Origin: a virus
Taxonomy: Duplodnaviria > Heunggongvirae > Uroviricota > Caudoviricetes
IMG/VR virus record: IMGVR_UViG_2684622669_000020
Length of the DNA stretch: 34,356 nt
Strand: one strand, 5' to 3'
The translations under genes and the position numbers were made by a program. The notes under the pieces were generated by a model. The model was given only the letters and a program-made list of their open reading frames with translations, was not told where the DNA came from and searched no databases. The first letter of the stretch is position 1; each line of letters begins with the position of its first letter. Of the stretch, positions 1 through 34,356 are shown piece by piece.

Positions 1-669
1 ACCTTTAGGACCCTGTTCACCCCGTGGCCCTTGCTCGCCCTGAGGGCCGGTGGGTCCTGGTGTTTTTGCAATTTCCTTCGCTTCTTCCAGCGCTGTCAGT
101 GCACCGGACTCGTGCAACTCCGCGTTTTTTGCTGCCTGTTCTGCACGATCTGCATCCAGTGAAACCGAAGACACAATTTGTTCCACGTGCTTTTTATCTT
201 CGGCAACGGCTTCTGCATTCTGCTGTACGTTATCCGCCAGCGTCTGACAGTCTGCCTTTATCTTCTGCGCATCAGCGACGTGTTGCCCGGCCTGTTGTTC
301 GCTTTTCGCTGCAGCTTCCGCGCTCTGCTGCGCCTGCGCCACCATTTCCTCGAAGCGTTTCACCACGTCGGGTTTGAGGTCGCCTTCATTGGGGGCGGTC
401 AGAAAATCATTCAGTGTGCCGGGCTTTGAGTCATCGTATACAGCGATATCACCCACGCAGCACTTGGGGCCGTTCTTTTGCTTGATGTGTACGGTGTATT
501 TGCCTTTTTGCGCTTCAAAGGCATACTGTCCCGCCGCATCGGTTTCAATAACCGCGAATGATTCAGTGACCACCTCACTGGTATTAACCAGTGCATCTAA
601 ATAAATTTTGCATTCCGCCATCGGAACGCCAGCGCCATTAATAAGCGCGCCTGAGATTAATACAGACAT
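1..669 (-). CDS. Side tail fibre protein, N-terminal part (gene continues beyond window start)
   Basis: Uninterrupted minus-strand frame from ATG 669-667 to position 1 (my own translation; absent from the ORF track because no stop lies in the window). AGAGG precedes the ATG. N-terminus MSVLISGALINGAG...VYDDSKPGTLNDFL resembles the prophage side-tail-fibre N-terminal domain as I recall it. Gly-X-Y collagen-like repeats GPTGPQGEQGPRGEQGPKG at 1-57. Confidence 0.7.
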   Translation of the reverse strand, partial: MSVLISGALINGAGVPMAECKIYLDALVNTSEVVTESFAVIETDAAGQYAFEAQKGKYTVHIKQKNGPKCCVGDIAVYDDSKPGTLNDFLTAPNEGDLKPDVVKRFEEMVAQAQQSAEAAAKSEQQAGQHVADAQKIKADCQTLADNVQQNAEAVAEDKKHVEQIVSSVSLDADRAEQAAKNAELHESGALTALEEAKEIAKTPGPTGPQGEQGPRGEQGPKG

Positions 670-683
670 AAAACCTCTGAATG

Positions 684-706
684 ATAAAAAGCCGCCTGCG
701 GGCGGC
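684..706 (-). terminator. Intrinsic terminator after the fibre assembly gene
   Basis: GC stem GCCGCC (691-696) / GGCGGC (701-706) with 4-nt loop, followed on the minus strand by TTTTTAT (690-684); begins 8 nt after the stop at 715-717. Confidence 0.6.
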
Positions 707-714
707 TGTCTGAT

Positions 715-1290
715 TTATTCAAAGTCTGACCAGTCAATATCTGGCGCGTTTTCCGGTTGAATGCGATTTAACTTTATTCGTAATTTCCTGAGGGCTGTCA
801 GCTGTTCCTGTTCTTCTGGCGTCGCTTCACCAAAATCAACGGCATCCTGTAAAACGGCGATTTGCTCTCCCATCTGTTTAAGCAGACCCACTTTCTTCTC
901 TGCCGCCTGATTTATCAGCGCATTACGCCTGGCTTCTTCATCTGTCACCCACTGACTGCCATTCCAGCGTTGGTATTCGCCATCAGGAGAAACAGAAGTC
1001 ACATTTTCAGGAAGGCTTCCCAGTTCAGACACTGTTACAGCTACTCCGGTTTCTGTTGAATAAACCGTTTTCCCTCGGTGGTCTTCCATCAGATGCCATT
1101 TCATTTCATCAGCATTAAACACGGCAGCAAAACCCGCCGGAATATCAGGAGGCGCAATATCTGTTGAATTAGCTGGCAGACCTGTATGAGGTGGAATATA
1201 TGCGTCGCTTTCGCCAATAAATTCATTTGTGCCATCGAGATAATTAAATACACGAATGGTTTGTGCTTCTGCACTCATTTTGAAAGTCAT
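715..1290 (-). CDS. Tail fibre assembly protein (Mu U / Tfa-like)
   Basis: 191-aa ORF directly downstream of the fibre gene with start overlapping its stop (TAATG); size, position and sequence typical of fibre assembly chaperones. Confidence 0.75.
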
Positions 1291-2273
1291 TATGCCAGCC
1301 TCACAATATAGTTATATGCAATGTTTTTGACGGTGTTTTCGGTATTGCCTGTTGGATTTACCGTGATGGTGTGCCCGTGCGCACCCAATGCCACAGTGTG
1401 TGCATGGGCACCAATACCTACGGTGTGGTTATGCTGACCAATATCGACAGTATGAGCATGTGCTCCGGCAGTACTGGAAATCTGATTCCTCCCTGACGCC
1501 TGCACACGTTGTTTTCCGCCGACAGAGTCGCCGCCATAAACACCACCGACACTGTGCGTATGATTTCCTGTGTTATTTGTTGATTTTGTGCCGTGGTTAA
1601 ACGTGCTGACTGTCTTGGTGCCGTAGTCAAATGAACTTGTCGTTTTCGTTCCTAAATCGGTATTTGACGCACTGGCACTGTGGGTATGCGACTTGATGCC
1701 ATCCTGTTCCTGAGACAATACGGCACGACCACTGGCAGGCTTACCCTTGATAGTCCAGCCGCGCATATCAGGAATAACCCCGGACGGATAGGCAACCGCA
1801 AGTTTAGGGTAAGAGCCTTTATCAAAACTTTGCCCCTGCATTAAGGCATAACCGGATGGCACAGAATCAGATGGCCACGGGATTGGTGTCCCGACCGGTA
1901 AAGCCGTACCCTGTAAATCAGCAATTTTTTTTGCTAACGCCTTTATTGCCTTTGGGGTGGCAGCCAGTTCTTCTGAATCACTGTCTGTTGCACTACTGAG
2001 CTGAACGATACCCTTCTTCGTTAATGATGCGTCAGGAACTTTTTTCCCGACATATAAGGCCAGCGCCTCAACCAGTTGATTCTGTTTTTTCGGATCCGGG
2101 GTTACGCCAGCCTCTTTAAGGACGTTAATCACCTCCTGCTGCAAATCGCGCGTTGCCGCCTGATGATTATTCATATATTCGGCGTAAACGATGGTTCCCT
2201 CAATTCCCTGAGTGGGGTCACCATCATGAAATAACTTATCCGGCGTATTCACCGGGGGCATTAAATTCTGCAT
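1290..2273 (-). CDS. Tail fibre protein (Mu S-like) with His-X-His repeat tip
   Basis: 327 aa; N-terminal region [25 protein letters not shown] typical of Mu/P2-type fibres; C-terminal repeats [21 protein letters not shown]. Confidence 0.8.
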
Positions 2274-2845
2274 TATTCCTCCACCTCATACGTGAAATAA
2301 CAGTCTGTAAAAGCCGGTTTAAGGTCTTTAAACGTGTTTTCTAAAATGGATTCACCAAAGGCCGTCAGCGGTTCGCCGGTTGCCGATGCGCCCGTTCTGA
2401 ACCGGTAGACAGGTGTTTTTGTCCCGATAACATTGACCTGCCACGCCCAGCGGATTTCCGGTATCAGCAGACGGTCACCACAGCGGTTTATCCCCACCCG
2501 GAACGGTCGCGGCTCCGTAATGGTGATGGTATAGCCCAGACTGGCGGCAAGGCTTTTGAAGTAAGGGATTGACAGACCACCCGTGGCAGCCATTTTTACC
2601 AGTATGTTTTGCCGCCGCTCCTGTTGTGTTGCCCCTTCACGGGGGACAACACCGTACACGCGCTCCCAGTCGGACAGCGTCATCGATGCCTGCAACGGGG
2701 TGATTTGTGCCAGAACGCGCGCTGCTGACGCCTTCACGGCTTCCATGACGTCAGCCTCGGCTGTCAGTTCTGCGGAAATATATTTCCCGTTCAGGTCATA
2801 ACTGACAGGTGGCAGCATGGCGCGAAATAAATCGACCATATTCAT
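2273..2845 (-). CDS. Baseplate/tail protein (Mu gp48-like)
   Basis: ORF between baseplate J-like gene and fibre gene; start moved to ATG 2845 (MNMVDLF), which has a GAGG upstream and sits 4 nt after the upstream stop. Confidence 0.6.
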
Positions 2846-2849
2846 AAAA

Positions 2850-3929
2850 TCACCCCTCACGTGGAAAAGGCTGAATATCAATATTTCCCGGGCGCAGCCA
2901 TTCCCACGTTGACGCGTTAATAATGGCTTTTACGTTGTCTGCTGGCGTAATGATTCGCCGGTCACTGACACCGGAAATTAATGAAATCTGGGTTTCCAGT
3001 TGTGAAATAATTAATTCTTGCCCCGGCTCCAGTCGGTTCATAAAATCCGTGATAACGTCAGTTATCTGCGGTTTTATCTGCTCAACGGTCAGGCCGCTGG
3101 TTTTTACCCGGACAACGAAATCAACGGCTTTTTTCGTCGGGGCCAGCACCATCGTGTCCTTCGCCGTCACCGGGCGAACTTCCTCAATATGTGCCAGCAC
3201 GGCATTAATCAGTTCCTGCGAGGGGAGGTCATTGGCTGACGTAATGGCCACATCAACCGTTCCCAGTCCACGACGCAATGGCTCCACATATGCCGAGGTA
3301 ACGCCATCCACTTCCAGCGCCCAGCGTTTGTAATCATATTTGTTACCGCCAGCGGGTGGCCTGCGCAGAATATCCAGATAACGCGCCAGCAGGTCGGCGT
3401 CACTTTCCCTGTCCGTTCCGCCAGTCAGGGATTTAATCGTCACCGTGCTGTTGATGCCTTCCGGCGGACTGACCAGCGTTGCCGTCTGCGTTGTGGATAC
3501 GTTCGTCTGTGCGCCCGTGGTGGTGCTTTTTACCGTCACCTCCGCGCTGCCTTCATCACCGATGGTGCAGTCTGCGGTGGTGGCCACGCTGACACCTTCA
3601 CCGCGAATTTCCGCACCGGCTGGCAGCATCTTACCGGGGGTACCGGTAATCACCACCGGACCGGATGAGGCTGTTGCTTTTTTACGAAAAACATTGCGCG
3701 TGCGGCAGTGCAGCTCCAGATATTCAGGGTCTGCCGTGTCAGGAAACACCTGACGGAGGATCCACCCCTGATGCATATAAAGCCCGTCCGCCACGCCGGA
3801 TACGGCATTGGCACGAATGCGGTAATCGCTGTCAGCGCCGGTGTCGATGGTTTCTCCCGGCAGGGCGTTAGCGATATCACGTAGCTGGCGTTCTGTGTTT
3901 TCAGCAACGCCCGGAACAGGAAACGGCAT
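2850..3929 (-). CDS. Baseplate J-like protein (Mu gp47-like)
   Basis: 359-aa ORF in conserved baseplate position; start overlaps upstream stop. Confidence 0.75.
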   Translation of the reverse strand: MPFPVPGVAENTERQLRDIANALPGETIDTGADSDYRIRANAVSGVADGLYMHQGWILRQVFPDTADPEYLELHCRTRNVFRKKATASSGPVVITGTPGKMLPAGAEIRGEGVSVATTADCTIGDEGSAEVTVKSTTTGAQTNVSTTQTATLVSPPEGINSTVTIKSLTGGTDRESDADLLARYLDILRRPPAGGNKYDYKRWALEVDGVTSAYVEPLRRGLGTVDVAITSANDLPSQELINAVLAHIEEVRPVTAKDTMVLAPTKKAVDFVVRVKTSGLTVEQIKPQITDVITDFMNRLEPGQELIISQLETQISLISGVSDRRIITPADNVKAIINASTWEWLRPGNIDIQPFPREG

Positions 3930-4279
3930 TACATAATCCTCACAGGGTGTTCAAACGTCTGCGGTGTGCCCGCGTTATCCGTGACGGTGATTAGCAGCAA
4001 CAACCAGCCGCGCTGCCCCGTTTTTGTGTCAACGGTAATTGCTGTCGCCCGCCCGTCATCGAGCAGGGGCTGAAGTGCCTGGCTGGCATACTGCGCCGCC
4101 AGCCTGTGGACACGGGAAACGTCTTTTTCCCGCTTCAGTTCGTGCAGGCGTGACCCCAGCGACGCATCCGCCCAGTAACTGCCAAGCGGCGTCGCCAGTC
4201 GCAGATAAACCGCGTTATGAAGTGTATAAATCCGGCGGCGTTCGTAGTCGCCGGTTGCAGGTGAAATCGTCTGGTCCAT
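3929..4279 (-). CDS. Baseplate protein (Mu gp46-like)
   Basis: 116-aa ORF, ATG at 4279-4277 (MDQTIS); conserved position between spike and J-like genes. Confidence 0.6.
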   Translation of the reverse strand: MDQTISPATGDYERRRIYTLHNAVYLRLATPLGSYWADASLGSRLHELKREKDVSRVHRLAAQYASQALQPLLDDGRATAITVDTKTGQRGWLLLLITVTDNAGTPQTFEHPVRIM

Positions 4280-4317
4280 GCCGCCAGTCTGGCAGCATGG
4301 ACAGGTCAGAATCAGGT

Positions 4318-4332
4318 GAGGGTGTTCAGCAC
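4318..4332 (-). promoter_or_regulatory. Copy C of repeated late-promoter-like element
   Basis: GAGGGTGTTCAGCAC matches the core of the elements at 16205-16237 and 23629-23662; lies in the 53-bp gap between the gp45-like stop (4333) and gp46-like start (4279). Confidence 0.35.
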
Positions 4333-4986
4333 TTAATTATGCGGCAGGCCGGATATGCCGTGAGGGGTATCGTGTTTGTGTGTTCCGATTTTAACGCCAT
4401 TAATGGTGACGTCAACGGAGGTAATCACACCACCCACATGGTTGATGTTGCCTTCAAAAGTGGCGGCGTATTCCTTGCCTCCACGGATGGCCATGCCACC
4501 GTTGCCGGTGATTTTACCTTCCACCGTCAGCTTATCGCTGGCCGTCAGTAACGGTGTCGTGAATGCGGCGTTCTCCTCTGCCTCAACCTCATAGCGTTTG
4601 CATTTCACCCGGTAAATGTCACATTCTGTTTCAATAATCCGCCCGCGCTTCAGCACAATTTTCGCGCCTTCGTCGGTATACAGGGCCACCTCGCCGGGTT
4701 TCAGTTCCGTCAGGCGATATGCGCCGTGCTCGGTGGCCACGACGACGGTATGGGAGGTATTACCGTTCAGCGGAACGGCAATACCCATTGAGCCGGGCGG
4801 CGGGGATGTGGTGAGGCCGTAATGCTGAAAATACTCCGCACCGTCCAGCTGTTCGCCTGCCAGCCCGTTCAGCTGAAGCAACTGCACTTTGGTCGAACTG
4901 TCCACCGTACCGGTCACCACCCTGAATGCCTGGCGAACGGCGGCCAGTGCCTGCTGTATGCGCTGATTAACCTTGTCCCACATCAT
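4333..4986 (-). CDS. Baseplate spike / gpV-like protein (Mu gp45-like)
   Basis: 217-aa ORF downstream of the baseplate hub gene; beta-rich sequence typical of spike proteins. Confidence 0.65.
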   Translation of the reverse strand: MMWDKVNQRIQQALAAVRQAFRVVTGTVDSSTKVQLLQLNGLAGEQLDGAEYFQHYGLTTSPPPGSMGIAVPLNGNTSHTVVVATEHGAYRLTELKPGEVALYTDEGAKIVLKRGRIIETECDIYRVKCKRYEVEAEENAAFTTPLLTASDKLTVEGKITGNGGMAIRGGKEYAATFEGNINHVGGVITSVDVTINGVKIGTHKHDTPHGISGLPHN

Positions 4987-6194
4987 TTCTCCCAGACCTT
5001 AACAATGGCAACCTCTTTTTTCTTTTTGCCCCTGCGGTGATGGCGTTTCTTCTCGCGCGGGAAGGCGTCAGGTATCCACACGCCGTCCTCCTTAAAGCGG
5101 AGCCGGGTTGTCTGCCCGTTGCGGCCTCCGCTGAACTCACGCCCCATCAGAAAAAAGATGGCATCGATGCCGTGGGGTTCGCTGACAATCCGCACACGCT
5201 GGCCGGGCTGCCACAGGACACCGTCCGCCGTGCGATGGCCTGCAACCAGTGCGACGATATCCAGCCCCGACAGGCGGGCATCACTCATCATTTTTTTTGC
5301 GCGCCAGTTCACCTGCTCCATGTTACCGGTGTCGCCCTGGGTGATTATCTGCGGGCGGTAATAATCCACAGTGGGGTCGGTGGCCACGGCTTTCATGTTA
5401 TGAATACCTGTCTGGCCATTGTCAGTATTACCGCCGTCCCGCCCGGATAACGTGCGCACGCTGCCGTCCTCGTTCCAGATATCCAGTGGCACCACGGCCA
5501 GTTGTTTTTTGCTGTCTGCGCGGCGGGCGTGGCTTTGAGCCAGTACCGTAAGTTCGGAGAAGCAGCCGTTAATGGACCGGGTATCGTCCAGCTCCATCAC
5601 GTTGTTCCCGGTGCCGTCCAGCTTCATAATCAGCGTGTCCACTGGCGTGGTGGTGTAGTCAGGGCCACCCACAACCAGCGTCCCGTCAGGCTCAAACCAC
5701 GGCCATAAGCCGCGACCGGCGGCAGCTTTAGCCAGTGCATCCCACGCACGCATCCCCGGCTCTATAACAACCTTGTCATTACGTGACACACCGGACGCCT
5801 GAATACGGATGCGCTGTATCCCCAGCGGTCTGACAATCCTGTCGATGACCTCGTCCAGTGTCAGCTGGTTGGCGCTGAACACCGGCGCGGCACAGTCCAC
5901 CAGGATGGCGGCATCATCACGCCCGGACAGAGTCAGCGTGCAGCTCTGACGGGATACACTGCGGCGCACGCTGTCCACGCGACCACTGAGGACCGTCTCG
6001 TCTCCCACCTGCAAACGGACCGGCGCACCCCGGACGATATCCGCCGGGAACACCTTTTCAGGCAGTCCCAGCTGAAGCTGCCACCCGTCGGCGGCTTTCA
6101 GGAAATCGCTGTCAATACGATAACTGCTCCAGTCAGAATGCGACCTTCCGGCAATGACCAGGCTGATTTTGTCGTCGTTATTTTGCATAGGCAT
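4983..6194 (-). CDS. Tail protein P / baseplate hub (Mu gp44-like)
   Basis: 403-aa ORF in conserved position after the DNA circulation gene; start overlaps upstream stop. Confidence 0.7.
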   Translation of the reverse strand: MPMQNNDDKISLVIAGRSHSDWSSYRIDSDFLKAADGWQLQLGLPEKVFPADIVRGAPVRLQVGDETVLSGRVDSVRRSVSRQSCTLTLSGRDDAAILVDCAAPVFSANQLTLDEVIDRIVRPLGIQRIRIQASGVSRNDKVVIEPGMRAWDALAKAAAGRGLWPWFEPDGTLVVGGPDYTTTPVDTLIMKLDGTGNNVMELDDTRSINGCFSELTVLAQSHARRADSKKQLAVVPLDIWNEDGSVRTLSGRDGGNTDNGQTGIHNMKAVATDPTVDYYRPQIITQGDTGNMEQVNWRAKKMMSDARLSGLDIVALVAGHRTADGVLWQPGQRVRIVSEPHGIDAIFFLMGREFSGGRNGQTTRLRFKEDGVWIPDAFPREKKRHHRRGKKKKEVAIVKVWEK

Positions 6195-7527
6195 TAATTA
6201 CCATCCCGGCGGTTATGTTGTTCGGGTCACGCAGCTGCGGGTTCAGGCGTTGCAGCTCTGCCGCACGGCTGTAGTCCCCGTACCACTGCCACGCCAGCAA
6301 CAGCAGACAGCTGTCCGCCTGCACCTGCTTCTGTGTCAGCGGTGGGCGGCGTGACAGAACCAGCAGGCCGACATCCTGCACGGATGCCGCCACGTTCTTC
6401 ATGCTCTGAATGATTTCCGGGTACATCAGCCCCAGTGGTGATGCGGTTTCGGTTATCCGTTCGCGTTCGCCTTCATAGCGTTCACGGAACAGCGTGATGG
6501 CGGCCTGTAAGCGGGTGCGCACATCCCCGACCAGTCGCCCGATATCCGCCGGTATAAGCTGTTCTGACTGGGCTTCATCGGACAGTATCACCGTCGCCAC
6601 GCTGGCCAGCTCTGAGGCCGCCAGAACCGCATAAGCCGCTTTCACGTCCTGCACGTCTTCCACGGACGCATCCGGCGGAAGTGCCACAGACGGCGTTTTA
6701 TCACCGCTGACCAGTGCGACCGGCAGCGCGACCAGCTCATCCATATCTGCCATCACCTCATTCCAGCAGGTCATCACGGTCGCAGAACTGGCGACGCGGT
6801 TTTCTCCGGTCAGTCCGGTCGTGGTGGCGGAATCAGTACGCTCCAGCACCGGCACCGCGTGCCCGACATCTGACGTGTGGATTTCCAGCACCTCTGCCAG
6901 CCCGCCGATGAACTTTCCGGGTTCGCTGGCCAGTGACATCATATTGTCGATGGATGAGAGAAAATCGCTTTTGAACGTCAGCAGGGTATTTACCAGCGTG
7001 GCACGCACCGCCTGGATTTTTTTAATCACGCTGTTAATGGTCTTTAAAGGGGCCGTAACAGCGTCAAATAATTCGCTTAACTGTGCCAGTAACTTATCCA
7101 GTTCATCAAATAACTGTTGTGCGAACAGCTCCGGTAACGGGGTGCTGAACAACGCGCTGCCGGTGCGGTTCTCCAGAAAACTCATGTCGATGGTGCAGCT
7201 GTCCGGGCTTTCTGCGTCATGGCGGATGCTGTAGCCGGTCACAATCACCGACGGTACGGAGCCATAAACCGGGTGAATCAGCTCACCATCGCCGCCTTCG
7301 TCCAGGGCGGCGATCAGCTTTTCAAGTTTATATTCGTAATACTCCCCCCACAGGAACGCCGTCATGCGAAACGGTCGCGCCTTGCGTCCGAGGTCGTGCA
7401 AATCCGCCCCGTCAACAAACGGGTATTCATAGACCGCATGGTCGCGGCTGATTTGTTCATCCGTGTTCAGTACATCAAACTGCACGCCACGAAAGGAGGC
7501 GTTTTGCAGGTTTTCAGCCCAGCCCAT
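6178..7527 (-). CDS. DNA circulation protein (Mu N / gp43-like)
   Basis: 449 aa; N-terminus MGWAENLQNASFRGVQFDV typical of the Mu DNA circulation N-terminal domain; follows tape measure. Confidence 0.75.
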   Translation of the reverse strand: MGWAENLQNASFRGVQFDVLNTDEQISRDHAVYEYPFVDGADLHDLGRKARPFRMTAFLWGEYYEYKLEKLIAALDEGGDGELIHPVYGSVPSVIVTGYSIRHDAESPDSCTIDMSFLENRTGSALFSTPLPELFAQQLFDELDKLLAQLSELFDAVTAPLKTINSVIKKIQAVRATLVNTLLTFKSDFLSSIDNMMSLASEPGKFIGGLAEVLEIHTSDVGHAVPVLERTDSATTTGLTGENRVASSATVMTCWNEVMADMDELVALPVALVSGDKTPSVALPPDASVEDVQDVKAAYAVLAASELASVATVILSDEAQSEQLIPADIGRLVGDVRTRLQAAITLFRERYEGERERITETASPLGLMYPEIIQSMKNVAASVQDVGLLVLSRRPPLTQKQVQADSCLLLLAWQWYGDYSRAAELQRLNPQLRDPNNITAGMVINAYAK

Positions 7528-10681: not shown

Positions 10682-10693
10682 TTACCGCGCTCC

Positions 10694-12912: not shown

Positions 12913-12965
12913 ATGCCCCAGACCACAGCGCAGACGCTCAACCAGCGCCCGTTCAATGTCAGTAA

Positions 12966-21326: not shown

Positions 21327-21352
21327 GTCACACCTGGTATACAAATATCAGA

Positions 21353-25460: not shown

Positions 25461-25501
25461 CAGGTTGTTACTCCGTGATTCAGAAAATTTCATGCCGGGA
25501 C

Positions 25502-25912: not shown

Positions 25913-25924
25913 CTGGCACCTCCT

Positions 25925-26101
25925 TTACATACCGTGATTTTTCCTGCGGTTTTGCGCCGCGCTGGGCTTTTTGCAACAACTGTGCCCCATAACCCCTAAA
26001 AACCCTGTCAACCTCAACCGTCTGTTACTAATCCTCACCCACCGCCAGACATCAAAGCCGTTTCTGCGAGCTAACAGAATTTTTGCCTTACGGTTTTTCA
26101 T
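25925..26101 (-). CDS. Small basic ORF, paralog 1 (MKNRKAK...)
   Basis: 58 codons; ATG overlaps the upstream stop (ATGA); N- and C-termini shared with the adjacent ORF at 26098-26274. Confidence 0.35.
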   Translation of the reverse strand: MKNRKAKILLARRNGFDVWRWVRISNRRLRLTGFLGVMGHSCCKKPSAAQNRRKNHGM

Positions 26102-26274
26102 CGTACTGCGTACCCTTTATTCCGCCTGTTCTGTGACGCAGTAGGCTTACGCTTTGCGGCAAAAGCCACCTGACCAAATGGATGGAGTACCGCTATCTTA
26201 TGGTTGCTAATAACCAGCTCCACCACACGCACAGGTCGCTGTAAAAGAAGGCGTTTTGCTTTACGGTTTTTCAT
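26098..26274 (-). CDS. Small basic ORF, paralog 2 (MKNRKAK...)
   Basis: 58 codons; ATG at 26274, 1 nt after the upstream stop; same start context GATGAAAAACCGTAA(A/G)GCAAAA as paralog 1. Confidence 0.4.
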   Translation of the reverse strand: MKNRKAKRLLLQRPVRVVELVISNHKIAVLHPFGQVAFAAKRKPTASQNRRNKGYAVR

Positions 26275-26275
26275 C

Positions 26276-26467
26276 TCATCCTTCCTCGCTTTTTGCAGTT
26301 TCAAACCACGCATCCTGCCCCACAACATCATCACCACATGGTGGTTCAGATTCTGAATAGCGACCGGCCCACCAGTATTTACCATTACGATGCTTTGCTG
26401 TGCCGCAACGCTGGCATATGAAAATTGACCCATCACGCTGATAATGATGGATGTGCTCGTTACTCAT
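26276..26467 (-). CDS. Hypothetical small protein with Cys motif
   Basis: 63-aa ORF containing CQRCG and a second Cys pair; start overlaps upstream stop. Confidence 0.45.
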   Translation of the reverse strand: MSNEHIHHYQRDGSIFICQRCGTAKHRNGKYWWAGRYSESEPPCGDDVVGQDAWFETAKSEEG

Positions 26468-26688
26468 TGTGCAGCCTCCTGTTTTGCCACTTTAAACGCC
26501 CGTAACATCGGAACCGTTTTACCGGTGATAACGGTTTTCATTAAAAGGCCGCCGCCACTCTGGTGGCGCACTTCAGGAGCAACAAACAGCGCCGCATCCA
26601 CAACCCGACAATAGCGACGGAACTCCCAGAACCAGCAGGTAACAATGATTTTTGCGGTGACTCCGTAGTCATAAAATTCAATATTCAT
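26464..26688 (-). CDS. Hypothetical small protein
   Basis: 74-aa ORF; ATG overlaps upstream stop (ATGA). Confidence 0.45.
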   Translation of the reverse strand: MNIEFYDYGVTAKIIVTCWFWEFRRYCRVVDAALFVAPEVRHQSGGGLLMKTVITGKTVPMLRAFKVAKQEAAQ

Positions 26689-26912
26689 TTGCAGTTAAAC
26701 CTTCTTTTGTGACGTTCTACAGCGGCTTTCATGGCGTTGTGCACGGTTCTTTTAATAATCCGGCGTCCCGCACTGTCATAGAACCGCCACCGGGAAGCCT
26801 CCGGATATTTAGGGAACTCAACCGCCGCGCTACCGTCATTCATCCTGTATTCGTGGCGTTCTCCGGGCGGCTGGTATATTGCTTCGGTAACACTGAGAAG
26901 TTTAAAAGCCAT
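26685..26912 (-). CDS. Hypothetical small protein
   Basis: 75-aa ORF with GGGGAGGG upstream of ATG 26912, 2 nt after the upstream stop. Confidence 0.5.
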   Translation of the reverse strand: MAFKLLSVTEAIYQPPGERHEYRMNDGSAAVEFPKYPEASRWRFYDSAGRRIIKRTVHNAMKAAVERHKRRFNCK

Positions 26913-26914
26913 CG

Positions 26915-27625
26915 TTACACCCTCCCCAGTGCCAGCGGTCTGTTGCTCTGACCATTAACTCCCTGATGCAGCCTGGCGTTTTTTCCGGCGATAAAACCGG
27001 CAGTAGCGGCAAACTCTGCACCCCGGCACGCTTTAGCCGTACGCATATCCCCGTCGCGCAGTCCTTTAGTGCTGTGCAGATTCTTTCTGTAAAGCTCAAG
27101 GCGGCTTTTTTCTTCCGGGGAGACGTCATACACCGCAATGACATCACGGGCACCAAAGACCCAGCCTTCGCAGAACTGGTCGCCACGGGCCACCCGCGTG
27201 GACGGGCCGCAACGTTTGCAGTGTTTATCCTGATATTTCTTGCGCTCTGCCATCATCTGACGGGAAAGCACATCAAACGCGTAAGCCGCGATTTCCGGGC
27301 GGCTGTCAGAGCCATAAAAACGCACGTGACGTTTGAGTGAACCAGAAGCCCGGTACTCACCGGAGATGTAACACTCGACGCCGAAGGCTTTACAGACCAG
27401 GTCACACAGGATGTGCATATAACGCGGCGGCGTACTGGCATCACTCGGCGCACCCGCGCTGGCAGCTTCCTGAATGTCGAACAATTCAGCGTCGTTTTCG
27501 CTGATGCCATGCTGGCGCATATAAGCCTGGGCTTTTGCAATAGCGTTAGCGGCTTCTTCCGGGCTTGATGTTCCTCTGGCAAGGTGTAACAGCTTTTTAA
27601 TTTTGGCGATGTATTTATCTTTCAT
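26915..27625 (-). CDS. DUF2786-like early protein
   Basis: 236 aa; N-terminus MKDKYIAKIKKLLHLARGTSSPEEAANAIAKAQAYMRQHGI matches the DUF2786-type N-terminal signature as I recall it; Cys-rich C-terminus. Confidence 0.6.
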   Translation of the reverse strand: MKDKYIAKIKKLLHLARGTSSPEEAANAIAKAQAYMRQHGISENDAELFDIQEAASAGAPSDASTPPRYMHILCDLVCKAFGVECYISGEYRASGSLKRHVRFYGSDSRPEIAAYAFDVLSRQMMAERKKYQDKHCKRCGPSTRVARGDQFCEGWVFGARDVIAVYDVSPEEKSRLELYRKNLHSTKGLRDGDMRTAKACRGAEFAATAGFIAGKNARLHQGVNGQSNRPLALGRV

Positions 27626-27638
27626 GGTCGTCTGAACC

Positions 27639-27821
27639 TCAGCATCCTGAATTCTGAATTACGCAACTTCCGGCACGGCCTTCAGGAACGTGGGGAGTTC
27701 GTTCTGGCTGCGGCGCTGGATGATCATCTGCTGTCGATTGAGAACTGGTCGCAAGACGATTAAAACAAACGATTGTCAGATTAATTTCGCGGGAGAATTT
27801 TTTTTGCTTAGCGATATTCAT
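27639..27821 (-). CDS. Possible small ORF in AT-rich spacer
   Basis: 60 codons with GAGGAAG upstream of ATG 27821; low-complexity sequence, so uncertain. Confidence 0.3.
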   Translation of the reverse strand: MNIAKQKKFSREINLTIVCFNRLATSSQSTADDHPAPQPERTPHVPEGRAGSCVIQNSGC

Positions 27822-27875
27822 AAATAAACTTCCTCAGAATCAGGCGCAGACCTGTTTACCTGCGCCATAAAAAAA

Positions 27876-28274
27876 TCAGAAATCAGAATCGAAATCGAAA
27901 ACGTCAGTTAATTCCCGCTTCAGTGAAACGCGCTCAGAATAAAAGCCATTGCTCTCACTGCACCATCTGACGGTCACACAGCCTTTTGATGTACCGAACT
28001 TAAAGAAACTCCATGTCTGATGACCTTCCCCGACATCACATTCTTCTGTAACCACTTCAGCCTCTGTTAGCGGTTCGCCTTGCAGGTCGTCAAGGTTTCC
28101 GACGATGTCCTCAATCCAGACTTTTTCGCAGCAGTCCTGAAAGTGAAAAAACGTAAACACGGTCCCCCATACTCCGCAGGAATAATCACCACGAAAAACA
28201 AGTTCATCGTTTTCATTCTTAAATACTTCTTTAAATGTACGCCCAAGCATTTCATTGATAACGGTAACGCTCAT
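27876..28274 (-). CDS. Acidic hypothetical protein (moron-like)
   Basis: 132 aa, GGAGAA SD; about 26 Asp/Glu versus about 10 Lys/Arg by eye; AT-rich gene flanked by AT-rich spacers with hairpins. Confidence 0.6.
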   Translation of the reverse strand: MSVTVINEMLGRTFKEVFKNENDELVFRGDYSCGVWGTVFTFFHFQDCCEKVWIEDIVGNLDDLQGEPLTEAEVVTEECDVGEGHQTWSFFKFGTSKGCVTVRWCSESNGFYSERVSLKRELTDVFDFDSDF

Positions 28275-28354
28275 TTCTGTTTCTCCAGATTCAGGCGTAA
28301 GCCAGCCCCGACGGGTTTACGCCTGTTTTAAATAACAATTAAAAACAAATTAAA

Positions 28355-28546
28355 TTAATGCGGTGCTTTCAGTGTTTCGACTTTAACGAAATAAGGCTCG
28401 ACATTAATTTCAACCACACAACCACATTTAAAATCTCTGGCAGGTGAAACGGTTTTCACCACACGACCACCACGCAACGCCGGATGTGCAGTGTGCATGA
28501 AGCGAGTCCCTACTGGATACTGCTTATTAAAGTTCTTCGCATTCAT
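28355..28546 (-). CDS. Hypothetical small protein
   Basis: 63-aa ORF with GGAGG upstream of ATG 28546. Confidence 0.5.
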   Translation of the reverse strand: MNAKNFNKQYPVGTRFMHTAHPALRGGRVVKTVSPARDFKCGCVVEINVEPYFVKVETLKAPH

Positions 28547-28760
28547 GGCGTGGCCTCCAGCCCTTCAGGTGAGCGTTAGCGCAGAACTCCGCACGATGTT
28601 CAGCCCAGATGCGGCGCAGGGTGCTACACGGGCTTTGCGCTGCCTTGCGCCACAGTTTTTCTGCCTCGTCATAATCGCCGCGTTGTTCTGCTCTGGACGC
28701 GCCCAGCGAGTACGCCGCGCAACGATTTCCGGCTCTGTACTCTTTGATATCCTGATGCAT
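28527..28760 (-). CDS. Hypothetical small helical protein
   Basis: Track ORF trimmed to ATG 28760 (MHQDIKEYRAG...), 1 nt after the upstream stop; 77 aa; weak resemblance to small TPR-like regulators. Confidence 0.45.
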   Translation of the reverse strand: MHQDIKEYRAGNRCAAYSLGASRAEQRGDYDEAEKLWRKAAQSPCSTLRRIWAEHRAEFCANAHLKGWRPRHECEEL

Positions 28761-28761
28761 G

Positions 28762-29406
28762 TTAAACTCCTGCAATATCCAGCGGGATTGCGCGGTATTC
28801 ATCAGAATCACCGACGCGCTCATACACGCGGATATAGCTTCTGCTGCCAACCACCTGGACGGCTTCACCAATCAGTTTCATGGCGTTATCCCAGCGTTCC
28901 TCCGTAATATCGAGACGACGCAGAGCCAGAACGCGCCCGGTGTTAATGTTGCCTTCCTTGTCCGTGCTGAATGCCTCACTGATGATGGCTTTAATTTCAG
29001 GGCGCGCTCCTTCCGTCCAGTCAGCCAGGCAGTCATCAATCAGTGCCTTCGCGGTCTGAATGCGTTCATCAAGCGCGATACGGTCCTGCATAGCGCGCTG
29101 AATCTTGTAACGCCCGTCAAAGCTGTAAAGCGTGATATTGCCTTTTTTGCCGCCTTTCACAGCGCCGTATTTCTCCGCCGACAGGTCAATAAACGCCTGA
29201 ATATCACCAAACGCACGCAGTTTCAGTTCACGCAGTGAGGCAGAGGCAGCAATCACCATCTCCACAAGCTCACCGACCAGCTGCTCACGGTCGCGGTCAA
29301 TATCTTTGATAAGGCTTTCAGGTGTCATTACGCCACGGGCATCCACCCAGTAACCTTCAGGCGCTTGAGTTTTCGTGTATTGCTTAACTTTATTTTCAGT
29401 CGTCAT
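28762..29406 (-). CDS. Conserved Mu-like early-region protein (possibly DUF3164 family)
   Basis: 214-aa ORF with GAGGTAAT SD upstream of ATG 29406; no similarity to Mu Gam as I recall it. Confidence 0.6.
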   Translation of the reverse strand: MTTENKVKQYTKTQAPEGYWVDARGVMTPESLIKDIDRDREQLVGELVEMVIAASASLRELKLRAFGDIQAFIDLSAEKYGAVKGGKKGNITLYSFDGRYKIQRAMQDRIALDERIQTAKALIDDCLADWTEGARPEIKAIISEAFSTDKEGNINTGRVLALRRLDITEERWDNAMKLIGEAVQVVGSRSYIRVYERVGDSDEYRAIPLDIAGV

Positions 29407-29435
29407 AATTAAATTACCTCAGTAATATTTACAGA

Positions 29436-29672
29436 TTAATTTGTGTTATGTGCGCAAGGCGCAACGTTTTCAGAAAAAAGATTCACGCCGTTATAGTCAT
29501 TTCTGAGCGTTTCCTTGATAACATCATGTAATCTTGTTGCCACCTGAAACTCCTTTTCGGAAGCTCCGTCCTCCGAATAACTCCCCGTGGTCTGGGTTAA
29601 AACACAGCCTTTTTCATCGGTATAGATAATTACTTCTAACTTAACCGCCATGTTTTTCTCCTTTAAAATCAA
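29436..29672 (-). CDS. Hypothetical small protein
   Basis: 78-aa ORF (alternative ATG at 29651) in the early-gene array. Confidence 0.4.
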   Translation of the reverse strand: MILKEKNMAVKLEVIIYTDEKGCVLTQTTGSYSEDGASEKEFQVATRLHDVIKETLRNDYNGVNLFSENVAPCAHNTN

Positions 29673-29832
29673 ATGATTTAAAAATAATTTCGTTCATAAA
29701 ACAGTGAGTTTTTATGATAATGTCGGAAACCTGCTCTCCCGTGACATCAGGCGGCAACTGATACGTCGCGACGGTTTTCTCCGGTTTACCTGGCCTGTCC
29801 AGGCTGAAAGTTAATTCAAGCTCCAGTGACAT
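29641..29832 (-). CDS. Hypothetical small protein
   Basis: 63-aa ORF in the early-gene array. Confidence 0.4.
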   Translation of the reverse strand: MSLELELTFSLDRPGKPEKTVATYQLPPDVTGEQVSDIIIKTHCFMNEIIFKSFDFKGEKHGG

Positions 29833-29842
29833 TTTTCACCTC

Positions 29843-30094
29843 TCAATGCATTTGTGTCTCTTGAGGAATATACGGACATCCCTGTGCCAGTTGTTTCACG
29901 TAGTCATGGTAGATTTGCAGATCAAGCCGTTCATTTCCGTGTTTCTCCTTCAGAACCGTACAAATAGCACCGACAGTCCCCAGAGTTCTTGCTGCTTCTT
30001 CGAGTGTGGCATTGTCGCCATTTTCCACCCGAATAAGGTTATGGCACTGGTTATTACCCAGGTCGGTAAATACTATTGTTAATTTCACGCTCAC
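29843..30094 (-). CDS. Hypothetical small protein
   Basis: 83-aa ORF, GTG start with GAGGAA 8 nt upstream. Confidence 0.45.
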   Translation of the reverse strand: MSVKLTIVFTDLGNNQCHNLIRVENGDNATLEEAARTLGTVGAICTVLKEKHGNERLDLQIYHDYVKQLAQGCPYIPQETQMH

Positions 30095-30109: not shown

Positions 30110-30349
30110 TTATTGCCATACGACGGTGCAGCCGTCGATACAGGACGTTTTAACCACGCGGCGCAGGCCGCTGAATCTCTGGATGATTTCCGTTACCGGC
30201 CATACAGGACCCCCCACGGGCGGGCAGGCATAAACCACAGGTAAACGGTGATGCTGTCCCGTTACACGGCCACCGGTGGTGTGGATGGCCACACGGGCAC
30301 GGGAACGGACGGCGTTAATGGTCTGCTTGTCCATCGTCTTGTTCTCCAT
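30110..30349 (-). CDS. Hypothetical small protein downstream of B
   Basis: 79-aa ORF; ATG overlaps the B stop (ATGA). Confidence 0.45.
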   Translation of the reverse strand: MENKTMDKQTINAVRSRARVAIHTTGGRVTGQHHRLPVVYACPPVGGPVWPVTEIIQRFSGLRRVVKTSCIDGCTVVWQ

Positions 30350-31259: not shown

Positions 31260-33335
31260 TTAACGGTTGTTTGTGCCGTCTTTCTTTAAATTGCGGTCAC
31301 GCTCGGATGCAAAGAAATAAAGTTCTTCTTTTTTCTTTTCCTCCTTACGCTCCAGACCAAATCCAAAATTAAAGTCAGGTCTCTGCGTAATAGCCGGGGT
31401 AAGCTCGCGTTTAGCCTCTTCGATTTTCTGCGTGGCCCGTGCAATGCGGCCTCTGGCGCGTTTCTCCTGCTGCTGTTCGATAACAGCTTTCGGGAACGCA
31501 TCAACCTTATTACCGTTCCAGATGGCATCGCAGATATAAGAACCGTCCATCCGCCTGACAATCACGCTGTTTGCGTCGTGAATGTCGTAACAAACCCTGA
31601 CTTCATTTCCGTGCTCTGCTGCCAGTTCTGTGGAGAAATAGATGTTTCTGAATAACACCACTTCACCGCGTCGCACCGTGCAGATGCTTTCCGGTCGGAA
31701 CATTTCATGCAGTTCTTCCGGCGACAGCATGTCGATTTCAGCCTTTTGCTCTTTTATCAGTTTCCGGCGATACGCTGCCGGGCTGTAATGTTCGCCATCC
31801 TCTTTGCGGGGAAGGCTGCTGTGTGGCCGGTTGTTATACCGTTTCACCTCCAGCTCTATTGCGGCCATCAGTTGCTCAAAAGTGGGGACTTCTCCCATCG
31901 CTTTAACCTGCCGCTTTGTCAGCTCTTTCCCTTTGTGGGTGGCCTTAATGGCTGACTGTGTGATGCGTTGCTGCATCATCACCGTTTCCTTGTCTGCATT
32001 TTTTGAGCAGTACGTCTGGAAACTCAGGGCCACATCTTTGGGTATTCCTTTGTTTGCCCGTTCTATTACCCCGCGCCCCTGCGGGTTACCAGGTATCCCC
32101 GTGTGATGCTCCACACCCAGCCGGGGCAGAATCCCGGTAATATCGGCATCAAGCACCCGGTTTTTTTCACCGCCCCCGTTATCGGAGTAATAAATCAGCG
32201 GTATTCCGTGTTGTGACATGCCATGACGCAATGCATCAGCAACGGCTATCACGTTCTCCGACAGGGACAGCGACCAGCCCACAATAAAGCGTTGCCCCGC
32301 ATCCATAACCAGCGTCACTTCTGGCCGGAATGTATTCCCGGTGGCAGGGTTGAATGCCATCAGTTTCATACAGTGACCATCCCCGACCCATACCGCATTA
32401 ACCGGTAATGTGCTCCAGTCGCGCCGCACAAAGGGATTGAGCGAACGCCAGGCTGAGCCGGTGGAGCGGAAACGCTCCTTAACAATCACCGGGACGTTGC
32501 TTAACACCCGTCTTACTGCGTGAACTGAAGGCAGTGCTGCCAGCATTCCCGCATCGTTCGCGTGTTTTTCATGCCACCAGGCTGAAAACTCGCGATACGC
32601 ATATTCAACGGTCGGGCGCTTCCATGAGCGATAGAACATAAAGAAATCGCTCAACCACCAGACCTGCTCCCACGGTGTTCCCTTATGATGACCGGGAGCC
32701 AGTAACGCCAGTAACTGATTGGCATCACCGCGCGCCATCAGCCAGGCGGAATACCATTCCTGTAAACTCCCTGTACTGACGCCAGTTCGCTTACCCTGTC
32801 GGGCATTGGCGGTATTACCGGCCACAATAACGCGCTCGGGCAAAGCCCCCTGGCGGATACCATCAACGATGTGTTTTATCGCTGCTGTCCTGGACATTCC
32901 TGCGTATTCACGCAGTTTATGCACTTCGGTAGCCAGCAATATCCGCGCATCAGCGATGGCCTTTTGCTTGTCGGTCAGTGCCTGAACTTCGCGTAATGCC
33001 AGTTCCGGGCATTTGACCATCACTTCCAGTTCATCGCGAATGGTGACGTTCTTAACTGCCTTCTGCTCAACCACGGCGGGCAGTTGCGCATCTTCCAGAA
33101 CCTGATGGGTCAGGCGTTGACGTAAAACCTTCTGAACATCTTTAGGTAAACTGGATATATGGTACTCATATATTTTCCCCTGAACTCCAGACTTCCTTCT
33201 TCTTGTCCAGTTCGCTCGTTTAGCTTTTTGAGTGATCCCCTGTACAGTTTTCGGTAGCCCTTGAAGCCCTGTTAGTTCATTCAACGTAAACCATTCAGGT
33301 TCGAACTTGACTTCATAGTCGTTGTTCTTATTCAT
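31260..33335 (-). CDS. A: DDE transposase (MuA-like)
   Basis: 691 aa; N-terminal domain resembles the repressor N-terminus (LxGLxGLPxTxQGIxQKAKRxxW); central integrase-like catalytic region; followed by B. Confidence 0.9.
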   Translation of the reverse strand: MNKNNDYEVKFEPEWFTLNELTGLQGLPKTVQGITQKAKRANWTRRRKSGVQGKIYEYHISSLPKDVQKVLRQRLTHQVLEDAQLPAVVEQKAVKNVTIRDELEVMVKCPELALREVQALTDKQKAIADARILLATEVHKLREYAGMSRTAAIKHIVDGIRQGALPERVIVAGNTANARQGKRTGVSTGSLQEWYSAWLMARGDANQLLALLAPGHHKGTPWEQVWWLSDFFMFYRSWKRPTVEYAYREFSAWWHEKHANDAGMLAALPSVHAVRRVLSNVPVIVKERFRSTGSAWRSLNPFVRRDWSTLPVNAVWVGDGHCMKLMAFNPATGNTFRPEVTLVMDAGQRFIVGWSLSLSENVIAVADALRHGMSQHGIPLIYYSDNGGGEKNRVLDADITGILPRLGVEHHTGIPGNPQGRGVIERANKGIPKDVALSFQTYCSKNADKETVMMQQRITQSAIKATHKGKELTKRQVKAMGEVPTFEQLMAAIELEVKRYNNRPHSSLPRKEDGEHYSPAAYRRKLIKEQKAEIDMLSPEELHEMFRPESICTVRRGEVVLFRNIYFSTELAAEHGNEVRVCYDIHDANSVIVRRMDGSYICDAIWNGNKVDAFPKAVIEQQQEKRARGRIARATQKIEEAKRELTPAITQRPDFNFGFGLERKEEKKKEELYFFASERDRNLKKDGTNNR

Positions 33336-33531
33336 AACGTGATGGCCAAATTTCTTCTGGCTTTTTACCGATCACACTAGCGACAATCATTTCTGCTTTG
33401 GGCCATTTTGTACGTAGAACATTACCCAAACTTCTTGATTTCATTCCATGCTCTCGTGAAAGCCGACTAAAGTTTGTTCCTTTCTTTTCTAGTTCCGCCT
33501 TGATATCTGACGGATGCATATCTTGTCTCAC
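33328..33531 (-). CDS. ner: Ner-like DNA-binding protein
   Basis: 67 aa; C-terminal KWPKAEMIVASVIGKKPEEIWPSRYE closely matches the Mu Ner C-terminus; GTG start with GAGGTAGAG upstream (alternative ATG at 33519); overlaps the transposase start. Confidence 0.8.
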   Translation of the reverse strand: MRQDMHPSDIKAELEKKGTNFSRLSREHGMKSRSLGNVLRTKWPKAEMIVASVIGKKPEEIWPSRYE

Positions 33532-33777
33532 GTCTCTACCTCTTCACATAAATCAACAGATATGAGATCTTGAGTGATTACTCGCATGTGTACGCGATTG
33601 AGTTACTCACCTGCGTGAAGAATACTAGATTTAAACAATGTTTAAGTCAACATGTTTAAATCTATATTTAAAACATTTTAGTAAGCAGGTGGCTTATCAT
33701 TTTGTTTTTGAAGTAATTTTTGTGTTTTAAACAAAAGCTCTGTTTCATGCTCTTTTGTTTAAATCTAAGGGGTTAGA
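33532..33777. promoter_or_regulatory. Divergent c/ner operator-promoter region with repeated TGTTTAAA sites
   Basis: AT-rich 246-bp spacer between divergent c and ner; at least six copies of TGTTTAAA / TTTAAACA, including the near-palindrome TTTAAACAATGTTTAAG. Confidence 0.5.
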
Positions 33778-34356
33778 ATGAAACAAGAATGGGTTGCCGC
33801 AAAAGACCTGGTAGGGCTTCATGGTTTACCTGCCACAATTCAGGGAATTCACCAAAAAGCCAAAAGGGGCGGATGGCGCAAAGAGAAAAGAATTACACCT
33901 GGTGTGAAGGGACATCAGGTATACTTCTACTTGCCTGATTTGCCTGAAAAAATACGCTGCTCCTTGGTGTCGAAAGACAGAGAAACTCCAGTGAGGAATG
34001 ATTTAAACAAAGGGTTGATATCAATACTGGAAATGACATCCGCAGAAGATCAATTCAATCTTTTTCGCGCTTTGTGTGAATTTGGCATCAAAGGAGTCCT
34101 AGAACACCTACAACAACCCACCAGGCAAGCTACGCAGGCCGACAGCGACCAGGACGAACAGGAGAATGCCATCAGAAGTCTAAACATCAGGGAATCGCTT
34201 AAAGACGTTATATGTATGGCTCTAGATGGTAATGAAGAAACCGACAAAGAGATTTTGCGACGCATCGAATCTCGTGCACGGGCTGGGTCGCCAGGTGGTC
34301 AGACCGTTGCCACGCCGGAGCAAGAAACGAAGCCTGTAAGCAAAAAATCAGCATGA
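33778..34356 (+). CDS. c: Mu-type repressor c
   Basis: 192 aa; N-terminal domain similar to the transposase N-terminus; divergent from ner; AGGGG SD; stop codon is the last 3 nt of the window. Confidence 0.8.
   Translation: MKQEWVAAKDLVGLHGLPATIQGIHQKAKRGGWRKEKRITPGVKGHQVYFYLPDLPEKIRCSLVSKDRETPVRNDLNKGLISILEMTSAEDQFNLFRALCEFGIKGVLEHLQQPTRQATQADSDQDEQENAIRSLNIRESLKDVICMALDGNEETDKEILRRIESRARAGSPGGQTVATPEQETKPVSKKSA

Follow-up and report, generated by a model that had tools for sequence, protein, structure and literature searches.

Transposable phages of the Mu type are recognized in part by the short target-site duplication flanking their insertions, which measures 5 bp in Mu and 6 bp in B3 (PMC8705779). 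Sp18 is a published Mu-like prophage of Escherichia coli (PMC2669165), and Sp18 and related Mu-like phages of STEC occupy variable insertion sites, including sites within other prophages (PMC10132054). The stretch of DNA analyzed here (34,356 bases; the window) is very probably one Mu-type transposable prophage, apparently intact, in a bacterial chromosome. With equally high confidence, the window represents approximately 93% of a 36- to 37-kb temperate myovirus that would use Mu-type DDE transposition for integration and replication, an estimate that presumes a source element built like L003, the closest complete relative (36.8 kb). The lineage is a new member of the Mu-type transposable phages and is not Mu, D108, or Sp18. 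The 4-bp target duplication of its relatives is the sole unusual trait of an otherwise ordinary kind of element.

Gene content and extent of the element

All gene classes named in the original prediction were found, in the predicted positions and on the predicted strands (Pfam, PHROGs; Table 1). The order is c, ner, A, B, a kil-like gene, approximately 20 small early genes, GemA, Mor, lysis, terminase, portal, F, G, and I, followed by T, sheath, tube, tape measure, DNA circularization, baseplate, fiber, and Tfa; c alone is on the plus strand, and all other genes are on the minus strand. Homology to Mu-family proteins had been proposed as a check of this reading, and the A, B, T, I, portal, F, sheath, and baseplate proteins match Mu-family Pfam models well above the curated cutoffs. 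By its position, the DUF1804 protein may be the small terminase. An Rfam scan detected no families in the window.

Table 1. Features of the prophage by position in the window
Feature	Position	Strand	Evidence
c repressor, 192 aa	33778..34356	+	Pfam HTH_Tnp_Mu_1, E 4.6e-7
Divergent c/ner control region	33532..33777	.	AT-rich, ~6 copies of TGTTTAAA(TCTA)
Ner-like early regulator, 67 aa	33328..33531	-	Pfam HTH_35, E 1.7e-25; 45% identity to Mu Ner
Transposase A, 691 aa, DDE enzyme with MuA architecture	31260..33335	-	Pfam HTH_Tnp_Mu_1, rve, Mu-transpos_C
Transposition ATPase B, 297 aa	30349..31242	-	Pfam AAA_22 and TniB; 31% identity to MuB over 214 aa
Kil-like small protein, position of Mu kil	30110..30349	-	phrog_2679 'Kil protein', E 2e-37
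Semi-essential early region, ~18 small genes	25275..30094	-	Pfam and existing PHROGs of unknown function
DUF3164	28762-29406	-	Pfam
DUF7448	27876-28274	-	Pfam
DUF2786/DUF7168	26915-27625	-	Pfam
GemA-like regulator	24544..25056	-	Pfam GemA, E 6.5e-18
Mor/C-family late-transcription activator	23981..24448	-	Pfam Mor, 29.1 bits vs cutoff 24.9
Lysis cassette (holins, endolysin, lipoprotein)	22106..23555	-	Pfam
Two holins	23103-23555 and 22817-23113	-	Pfam
GH108 endolysin with PG_binding_3 domain	22288-22833	-	Pfam
61-aa lipoprotein, spanin candidate	22106-22291	-	Lipobox LLPVGC in translation
DUF1804 protein	21379..21879	-	Pfam DUF1804, E 2.8e-52
Terminase large subunit (TerL)	19686..21344	-	phrog_38, E 1e-143; annotated terL in relatives
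Portal, Mu gp29/H type	18087..19682	-	Pfam Portal_Mu, E 1e-95; 37% identity to Mu gp29
Mu F-like head morphogenesis protein	16934..18100	-	Pfam Phage_Mu_F; 41% identity to Mu gp30
Mu G-like virion morphogenesis protein	16386..16937	-	Pfam Phage_tail_S, E 2e-26
Mu I-like protease/scaffold	15061..16230	-	Pfam Mu-like_Pro, E 7e-99
Major head subunit, gpT type	13746..14696	-	Pfam Mu-like_gpT, E 4e-96
Head-tail joining: FluMu_N/gp35-like, Gp36, Gp37, DUF2635/gp38	12108..13742	-	Pfam
Contractile tail (sheath, tube, assembly chaperone)	9927..12115	-	Pfam and PHROGs
Sheath	10694-12115	-	Pfam sheath domains
Tube	10307-10681	-	PHROGs (phrog_185/phrog_508 for tube and chaperone)
Assembly chaperone	9927-10310	-	PHROGs (phrog_185/phrog_508 for tube and chaperone)
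Tape measure, 745 aa	7527..9764	-	Pfam PhageMin_Tail
DNA circularization protein, Mu N type	6178..7527	-	Pfam DNA_circ_N, E 7e-28
Baseplate: gp44/P, gp45, gp46, gp47 (Baseplate_J), gp48	2273..6194	-	Pfam
Tail fiber 1, 327 aa	1290..2273	-	Pfam Phage_fiber_2 and Collar
Tail fiber assembly protein (Tfa)	715..1290	-	Pfam Caudo_TAP, E 6e-32
Second fiber gene, 5' part	1..668	-	Sequence; PF08400 on same contig

As predicted, neither end of the element lies within the window. On the right, the window closes with the c stop codon; on the left, the second fiber gene, which is on the minus strand, begins at 668 and extends past position 1. Extending the source contig, as had been suggested, located a TG-type terminus 300 bp beyond c, outside the right edge. 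The second fiber carries a prophage tail fiber N-terminal domain and then collagen-like G-X-Y repeats, and because the contig breaks within this repeat, the fiber-side end of the source copy was not recovered. Only one contig carries the exact Tfa protein, and this contig ends in the collagen-like repeat. The second-fiber homologues of the relatives are full length and are followed by a DUF4376 gene. The target duplication of the source copy is predicted to be CGTA. The host flank on the source contig is only 85% identical to E. coli.

Control region and transposition proteins

A divergent repressor/Ner-type switch is present at one end, and the DNA-binding domain of its repressor is common to A. 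This N-terminal winged-helix domain, 40% identical between c and A over 60 aa (E 2e-12), has PDB matches in the structures of MuA I-alpha and Mu c, the Mu c repressor match (1G4D) having been obtained via A. Additional PDB matches of A were 1TNS, 4FCY, and 1BCO. The sequence similarity of the A core to MuA is weak (E about 2e-4), and A residues D319 and D385 align with MuA D269 and D336. As MAFFT aligned MuA E392 poorly, the third catalytic residue was assigned by a motif match (GVIER/PVER), which suggests E425. The AAA+ transposition activator B adjoins A. The c/ner region contains candidate operators, to judge from its repeats, and by analogy could also be a transposition enhancer. A sigma-70-like site on the minus strand (33650-33622) was at chance level, with 1 found versus 1.3 expected in shuffles.

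Early region and late activator

The early region is mosaic between relatives, with positions 27846-28286 missing from three of them. A PADLOC search returned no match for nine early-region proteins and the partial second fiber. For GemA, the gene caller provides an alternative start that yields a protein of 137 aa (24544-24957). The Mor-C activator of the original prediction stands in part: one Mor/C-family gene is present, as the single activator in the window and not as one of two. No homologue of Gam, and no gin/G-segment, com, or mom, was detected in the window by Pfam, tblastn against Mu, or PHROGs. Likewise, the closest complete relative ends after the second fiber and a DUF4376 gene, and no gene there carries a gin or mom annotation. 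With a single Mor/C activator and no Gam homologue found, the element may have a regulatory cascade unlike that of Mu.

Element ends, insertion sites, and mobility

Collinear relatives with 95 to 97.6% identity were present in 53 of 5,426 complete E. coli genomes, and 280 blocks of the protein collection list the exact c protein. No relative was found among the GTDB representative genomes by search with the A protein; the 23-nt c-side end matched only one representative genome, that of Erwinia tracheiphila, without other DNA similarity. Dozens of RefSeq genomes already contain gene-by-gene annotation of the lineage.

The anticipated TG...CA ends were observed on the c side in the source contig and on both sides in the relatives, in which they read TGTAAC...CCCCACA. 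Repeats occur in the left end at 16-25 (L1), near 90 (L2), and at 141-150 (L3) and in the right end at 16-25 (R1), 38-47 (R2), and, inverted, 68-77 (R3). This layout resembles that of the ends of Mu, with three transposase sites per end and R3 inverted.

Near-identical copies occupy many unrelated chromosomal sites and are flanked on either side by target duplications, as expected of a transposable prophage. In total, 24 different c-side host junctions were recovered, with insertions inside open reading frames (ORFs). Insertions disrupt alx, yigG, tkt, ycgB, and phn genes, two copies sit within other prophages, and the empty sites in K-12 reveal simple insertions in alx and yigG. The lineage appears to have been recently mobile. 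To judge from population genomics, the prophage is probably active.

It is unlikely that the source copy is instead a grounded, defective remnant no longer able to transpose or form particles. Its unrecovered fiber-side end would fit such a remnant, as would two relatives: F163 has lost the terminal base(s) of one end along with 1.3 kb of host DNA, and two fiber genes of Z1323CEC0011 are annotated as pseudogenes. However, the window shows neither frameshifted nor truncated genes, and its large ORFs are all full length, equal to those of intact relatives. Furthermore, the source copy has an intact c-side end, identical to that of copies at 20 or more other sites, and over the transposition module it shares 99.5% identity with a copy inserted elsewhere.

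Target-site duplication

The original prediction of a 5-bp target duplication was not borne out: in all fully resolved insertions of the lineage (11/11), the duplication was exactly 4 bp. The lineage therefore has the duplication that characterizes transposable phages, but at neither the Mu nor the B3 length. Sp18, used as a control, showed a TG...CA footprint and a 5-bp duplication (CCAGG). A 5-bp reading, with the boundary shifted by one base, was rejected, as the fifth base matched in 3/11 insertions on each side, which is the chance rate, and as these matches require contradictory element ends. Literature searches on 4-bp duplications in Mu-like phages found none for any transposable phage.

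It is possible, although we hold this with somewhat less than even confidence, that the MuA-like transposase of the lineage joins the ends to the target with a 4-bp stagger, compared to 5 bp in Mu and Sp18 and 6 bp in B3. The transposase of Sp18 is 44% identical and yet makes 5-bp duplications; the pair would therefore be a natural system for studying what sets the stagger in the transpososome. If unreported, the 4-bp duplication widens the known range of Mu-type strand-transfer geometry. Prophage boundary scripts that expect a 5- or 6-bp scar would overlook 4-bp elements.

Relationship to described phages

The description of the element as Mu-like holds for its Mu-type genes and their order, while the relation to Mu itself is distant (24 to 45% identity where matched by tblastn). 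In comparison with Mu (Muvirus; NC_000929), the order from c, ner, A, B, kil, and the early genes through GemA, Mor, lysis, and terminase to an S-like fiber and Tfa is shared, as are the N-terminal domain common to c and A, the architecture of the ends, and a noncoding gap between G and I, the place of the gyrase site of Mu. The baseplate proteins also retain the order of Mu gp44 to gp48, at 24 to 37% identity (tblastn). In contrast, approximately 30 proteins of the element had no tblastn match in Mu, among them TerL; the GH108 endolysin and the holins also differ. Unlike Mu, the element lacks, within the window, Gam, a separate C activator, the G segment, gin, com, and mom, has a second, collagen-like fiber, and belongs to a lineage that duplicates 4 bp rather than 5 bp. 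On identity, the genus Muvirus (Mu, D108, SfMu) does not extend to the element, as no Mu-type record gave a megablast match, and the Muvirus traits of Gam, a Mor-then-C cascade, an invertible G segment with gin, and com/mom were undetected in the window.

Among the nearest phage records (Klebsiella phage ST405-OXA48phi1.1, Pseudomonas phage VW-6B, Yersinia phages vB_YpM_5/6/Tongde, Mannheimia 3927AP2, and Haemophilus SuMu), A was 42 to 48% identical over >90% of its length, in all cases below 50%, and there was no nucleotide-level match. The Pseudomonas B3-/D3112-like transposable siphoviruses share a gpT capsid (57% identical), DUF3164, and a single Mor-type activator with the element, which differs from them in its contractile tail and Mu-type baseplate and in an A protein that is 32% identical.

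It is very improbable that the element has been described before under a different name, whether as Mu, D108, SfMu, or the O157 prophage Sp18. Host genus and gene order are the same, and Sp18 of E. coli O157:H7 Sakai, like the element, is a transposable myovirus prophage of Escherichia. However, A is 44% identical to Sp18 A over its full length, nucleotide similarity to Sp18 is absent, and BLAST detects only the first ~60 residues of A in MuA. Sp18 also has Gam, a DNA invertase with an invertible fiber segment, and a mom-like gene, which the lineage does not. The nearest phage records reach 46 to 48% for A and 68% for the capsid (Klebsiella phage ST405-OXA48phi1.1), and by megablast no phage record covers >2% of positions 9500-34356 or >30% of positions 1-2900. 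As no close match was found among the 50,697 phage records searched, the lineage has probably not been isolated.

A site-specific, integrase-type myovirus prophage merely carrying Mu-like structural genes can be dismissed with near certainty: structural modules do swap between phage types, and its head genes are similar (57%) to those of D3112/B3-like siphoviruses, but the element has A and B and has no integrase, no integrase/recombinase domain was found by Pfam in any ORF scanned, no excisionase, tRNA, or att-type feature was found in the window, and the 24 different insertion positions are within ORFs and are bounded by short duplications instead of att repeats.

Proposed transposition cycle

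For this Mu-type transposable prophage, the following cycle is proposed. In the lysogen, c would bind the repeated TGTTTAAA motifs between c and ner and keep the early promoter shut. Upon derepression, the leftward operon ner-A-B-kil-... would be transcribed. A (D319, D385, and the putative E425) would then bind the three sites per end and the operator region, reaching the latter via the N-terminal domain it shares with c; the sharing is observed, and an enhancer role is presumed. The AAA+ protein B, by homology, would bring the target DNA, and the 3' ends at the terminal CA would be joined to it with the 4-bp stagger that the footprints of 11 relatives show. The one Mor-family activator would switch on the lysis, head, and tail genes, and DUF1804 and TerL could then perform headful packaging.

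Implications

Mu-like prophages are common in Escherichia, and the finding is mostly of little consequence. As the lineage is widespread and apparently recently mobile and its copies interrupt genes, it is an ongoing source of insertion mutations for E. coli and related bacteria. The early region, with ~18 genes of unknown function that vary between copies, is worth keeping in view.

Gene content and organization

Gene content, a domain shared by the repressor c and transposase A, the element ends, the scattered insertion sites and their 4-bp footprints bear out the original prediction of a Mu-like transposable prophage, and the element is apparently intact and ordinary for this group. The open reading frames (ORFs) of the window form a single long minus-strand run plus one plus-strand gene at the right edge. 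Fifty ORFs were searched against Pfam, and the Pfam-negative ORFs were then searched against PHROGs; all but one of the small ORFs were assigned to existing PHROGs. Together with the ORF survey, these searches matched the predicted gene order in full and agreed with the earlier observations that all genes except c lie on the minus strand, that c ends at the right edge and that a fibre gene runs off the left edge. The GC content ranged from 41 to 62% across the window, with its minimum at the right end. No tRNA was detected in the window, which also had no Rfam matches, and PADLOC returned no matches.

Genes and other features of the window
Feature	Coordinates	Strand	Domains and remarks
c repressor	33778-34356	+	HTH_Tnp_Mu_1 (Pfam); stop codon is the final base of the window
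Ner	33328-33531	-	
Transposase A	31260-33335	-	HTH_Tnp_Mu_1, rve, Mu-transpos_C
ATPase B	30349-31242	-	
Kil-like gene	30110-30349	-	
Small early genes (about 18)		-	Include DUF3164, DUF7448, DUF2786/DUF7168
DUF7448 gene	27846-28286	-	
Two to three small early genes	25483-26275	-	phrog_8805, phrog_1380
GemA	24544-25056	-	
Mor-family activator (single)	23981-24448	-	
Lysis genes		-	Two holins, GH108 endolysin, small lipoprotein
61-aa lipoprotein	22106-22291	-	3' of endolysin; lipoprotein signal LLPVGC
DUF1804, then TerL	TerL 19686-21344	-	
Portal_Mu, F, G, I protease, 131-aa virion protein		-	Head genes, in right-to-left order
Non-coding gap	16231-16385		Between G and I; 155-209 bp
gpT capsid, then gp35-, gp36-, gp37- and gp38-like proteins		-	
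Sheath, tube, chaperone, tape measure, DNA_circ_N, gp44 to gp48		-	Tail genes
Fibre (327 aa), then Tfa		-	Left part of window
Second fibre gene	Starts 668, runs off position 1	-	Prophage tail-fibre N-terminal domain, collagen-like G-X-Y repeats

By homology to Mu, the element would use an operator and enhancer, deliver targets through B, activate late genes through Mor and package DNA by the headful. The 61-aa lipoprotein is a candidate outer-membrane spanin judging from its signal, and no obvious inner-membrane spanin partner for it was seen. In Mu, the central strong gyrase site sits where this element has the gap between G and I. A G+C-rich hairpin, found by eye, follows Tfa upstream of the second fibre gene.

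Transposase A and repressor c

The domain order of A is that of MuA. Its N-terminal domain matches the solved structures of MuA I-alpha (1TNS) and of the Mu c repressor (1G4D) and is 40% identical to the N terminus of the window's own c protein; Mu c and MuA likewise have an N-terminal domain in common. Residues D319 and D385 of A align with D269 and D336 of MuA, and E425 is the most probable third catalytic residue, judging from the local motif (GVIER, compared with PVER in MuA).

Source contig and element ends

An exact-protein match placed the window at positions 2 to 34357 of the 122-kb NCBI contig BBWB01000016.1 (GCA_001515025.1). Neither prophage end is present in the window, and extension along this contig located the c-side (right-edge) end: the c stop codon is followed by 300 bp of prophage ending in ...CCAGAATTGATCACTACCCCACA and then by host DNA (CGTACGGCAAAC...). 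As the contig starts within the collagen-like G-X-Y repeat of the second fibre gene, the fibre-side (left-edge) end of the source copy must lie on another contig. Compared with the closest complete relative, a 36.8-kb element in E. coli Z1323CEC0011 (L003), the window is short by about 1.5 kb on the fibre side (the rest of the second fibre gene and a DUF4376 gene) and by 0.3 kb on the c side. The second fibre differs greatly in length among relatives and is followed by the DUF4376 gene; the relatives in E423 and F163 instead carry opposed fibre and Tfa genes in a G-segment-like pair, and their prophage annotation includes no invertase.

Host DNA at the c-side junction of the source copy belongs to an LptF/LptG-family gene. 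This host flank shares only 85% identity with E. coli, so the source organism is probably not E. coli proper. The interrupted gene (flank sequence L029, 2672-3696), probably a non-essential paralogue, is already divided between two ORFs of 131 and 184 aa.

All copies share the ends TGTAACTTCGCG... on the fibre side and ...ACCCCACA on the c side, i.e., TG...CA. A CAATTCTGG(A/G)C-like motif recurs near both, at distances of 16-25, near 90 and 141-150 from the c-side end and of 16-25, 38-47 and 68-77 (inverted) from the fibre-side end. One end of Mu has L1, then a gap and L2-L3; the other has R1-R2 followed by R3 in inverted orientation. The motif layout here appears to match this arrangement. 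The c-side terminal ~27 nt (GGGGTCCAGAATTGATCACCACCCCACA) is conserved in an otherwise dissimilar sequence of Erwinia tracheiphila ICMP 5845 (L032, 1396-1422), which may represent a distant transposable prophage sharing the L1 site.

Target site duplication

An exact 4-bp direct repeat bounded the TG...CA ends in all 11 insertions with both flanks available, rather than the predicted 5-bp duplication. These insertions are all in relatives outside the window (L001, L003, L008-L017 and L034-L061). The repeats were CACC, GATT, CATC, CGAC, ATCA, ATAT and CATT in complete genomes and CAAG, CGTG, CATG and GGTT in IMG/VR contigs, where CATG and GGTT each pair contigs from one genome or related genomes. 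Under a 5-bp reading the fifth base should always match; it did so in 3 of 11 cases on either side, as expected by chance, and these matches would require element ends to differ between copies. The same procedure applied as a control to Sp18, a Mu-like prophage of E. coli O157:H7 Sakai, recovered TG...CA ends and a 5-bp repeat (CCAGG). The scars described for transposable prophages span 5 bp in Mu and 6 bp in B3 (PMC8705779). No report of a 4-bp duplication was found in the searched literature, which covers older work thinly. Only the 4-bp duplication might surprise a specialist; it falls outside the window, and its consequence is modest.

Distribution and insertion sites

A megablast search against 5,426 complete E. 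coli genomes detected collinear elements with 95 to 97.6% identity in 53 of them, none holding a copy at least 99% identical. Eight copies in complete genomes were read. Five occupied alx, yigG, tkt, ycgB and an FAD-oxidoreductase gene adjoining ydiR/ydiT, one lay between phnL and phnJ, and two were in a P2-like prophage tail gene and the holin gene of another prophage. Eight contigs with an identical c protein gave eight differing flanks (one being the yigG site again), and eight IMG/VR contigs gave eight additional flanks, for a total of 24 distinct c-side junctions, including that of the source contig. Comparison with the empty K-12 sites identified the alx and yigG copies as simple insertions. 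The F163 copy (L004, 2869 and 37430) has a 1.3-kb phnL-phnK-phnJ host deletion beside its fibre-side end, with the terminal T or TG gone and the duplication absent; the pattern resembles an adjacent deletion, which would leave the prophage unable to move. Residence of the Mu-like prophage within other prophages was observed in UMNF18 (P2-like tail gene; L008/L009) and STEC316 (lambdoid holin gene; L010/L011).

Relation to known phages

None of the searched phage records closely matches this lineage, which is nevertheless common in Escherichia genomes, where it is already machine-annotated. At the nucleotide level, no phage record matched more than 2% of window positions 9500-34356 or more than 30% of positions 1-2900. 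By tblastn, A was 48% identical to that of Pseudomonas phage VW-6B, 46% to that of Klebsiella phage ST405-OXA48phi1.1 (capsid, 68%), 44 to 45% to those of Yersinia vB_YpM phages and Sp18-type elements and 42% to those of Mannheimia 3927AP2 and SuMu; the capsid was 57% identical to those of D3112/B3-like phages. Sp18, with a transposase 44% identical to A, generates a 5-bp duplication, compared with 4 bp here. Mu itself matched 20 of 51 window proteins at 24 to 45% identity in conserved order; the remaining proteins were unmatched, among them TerL, the lysis proteins and the products of every small early gene. Gam, a second Mor/C paralogue, an invertase and mom were not found among the window ORFs.

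Variation in the early region

The small early genes at 25483-26275 have 78 to 96% nucleotide identity to unrelated phages (P1-like phages, RCS47, Stx2 phages, TL-2011b/c and Av-05) and look like a cassette swapped between phage types. The DUF7448 gene is missing from the three closest complete relatives, and its exact protein occurred in only four contigs of a large protein collection.
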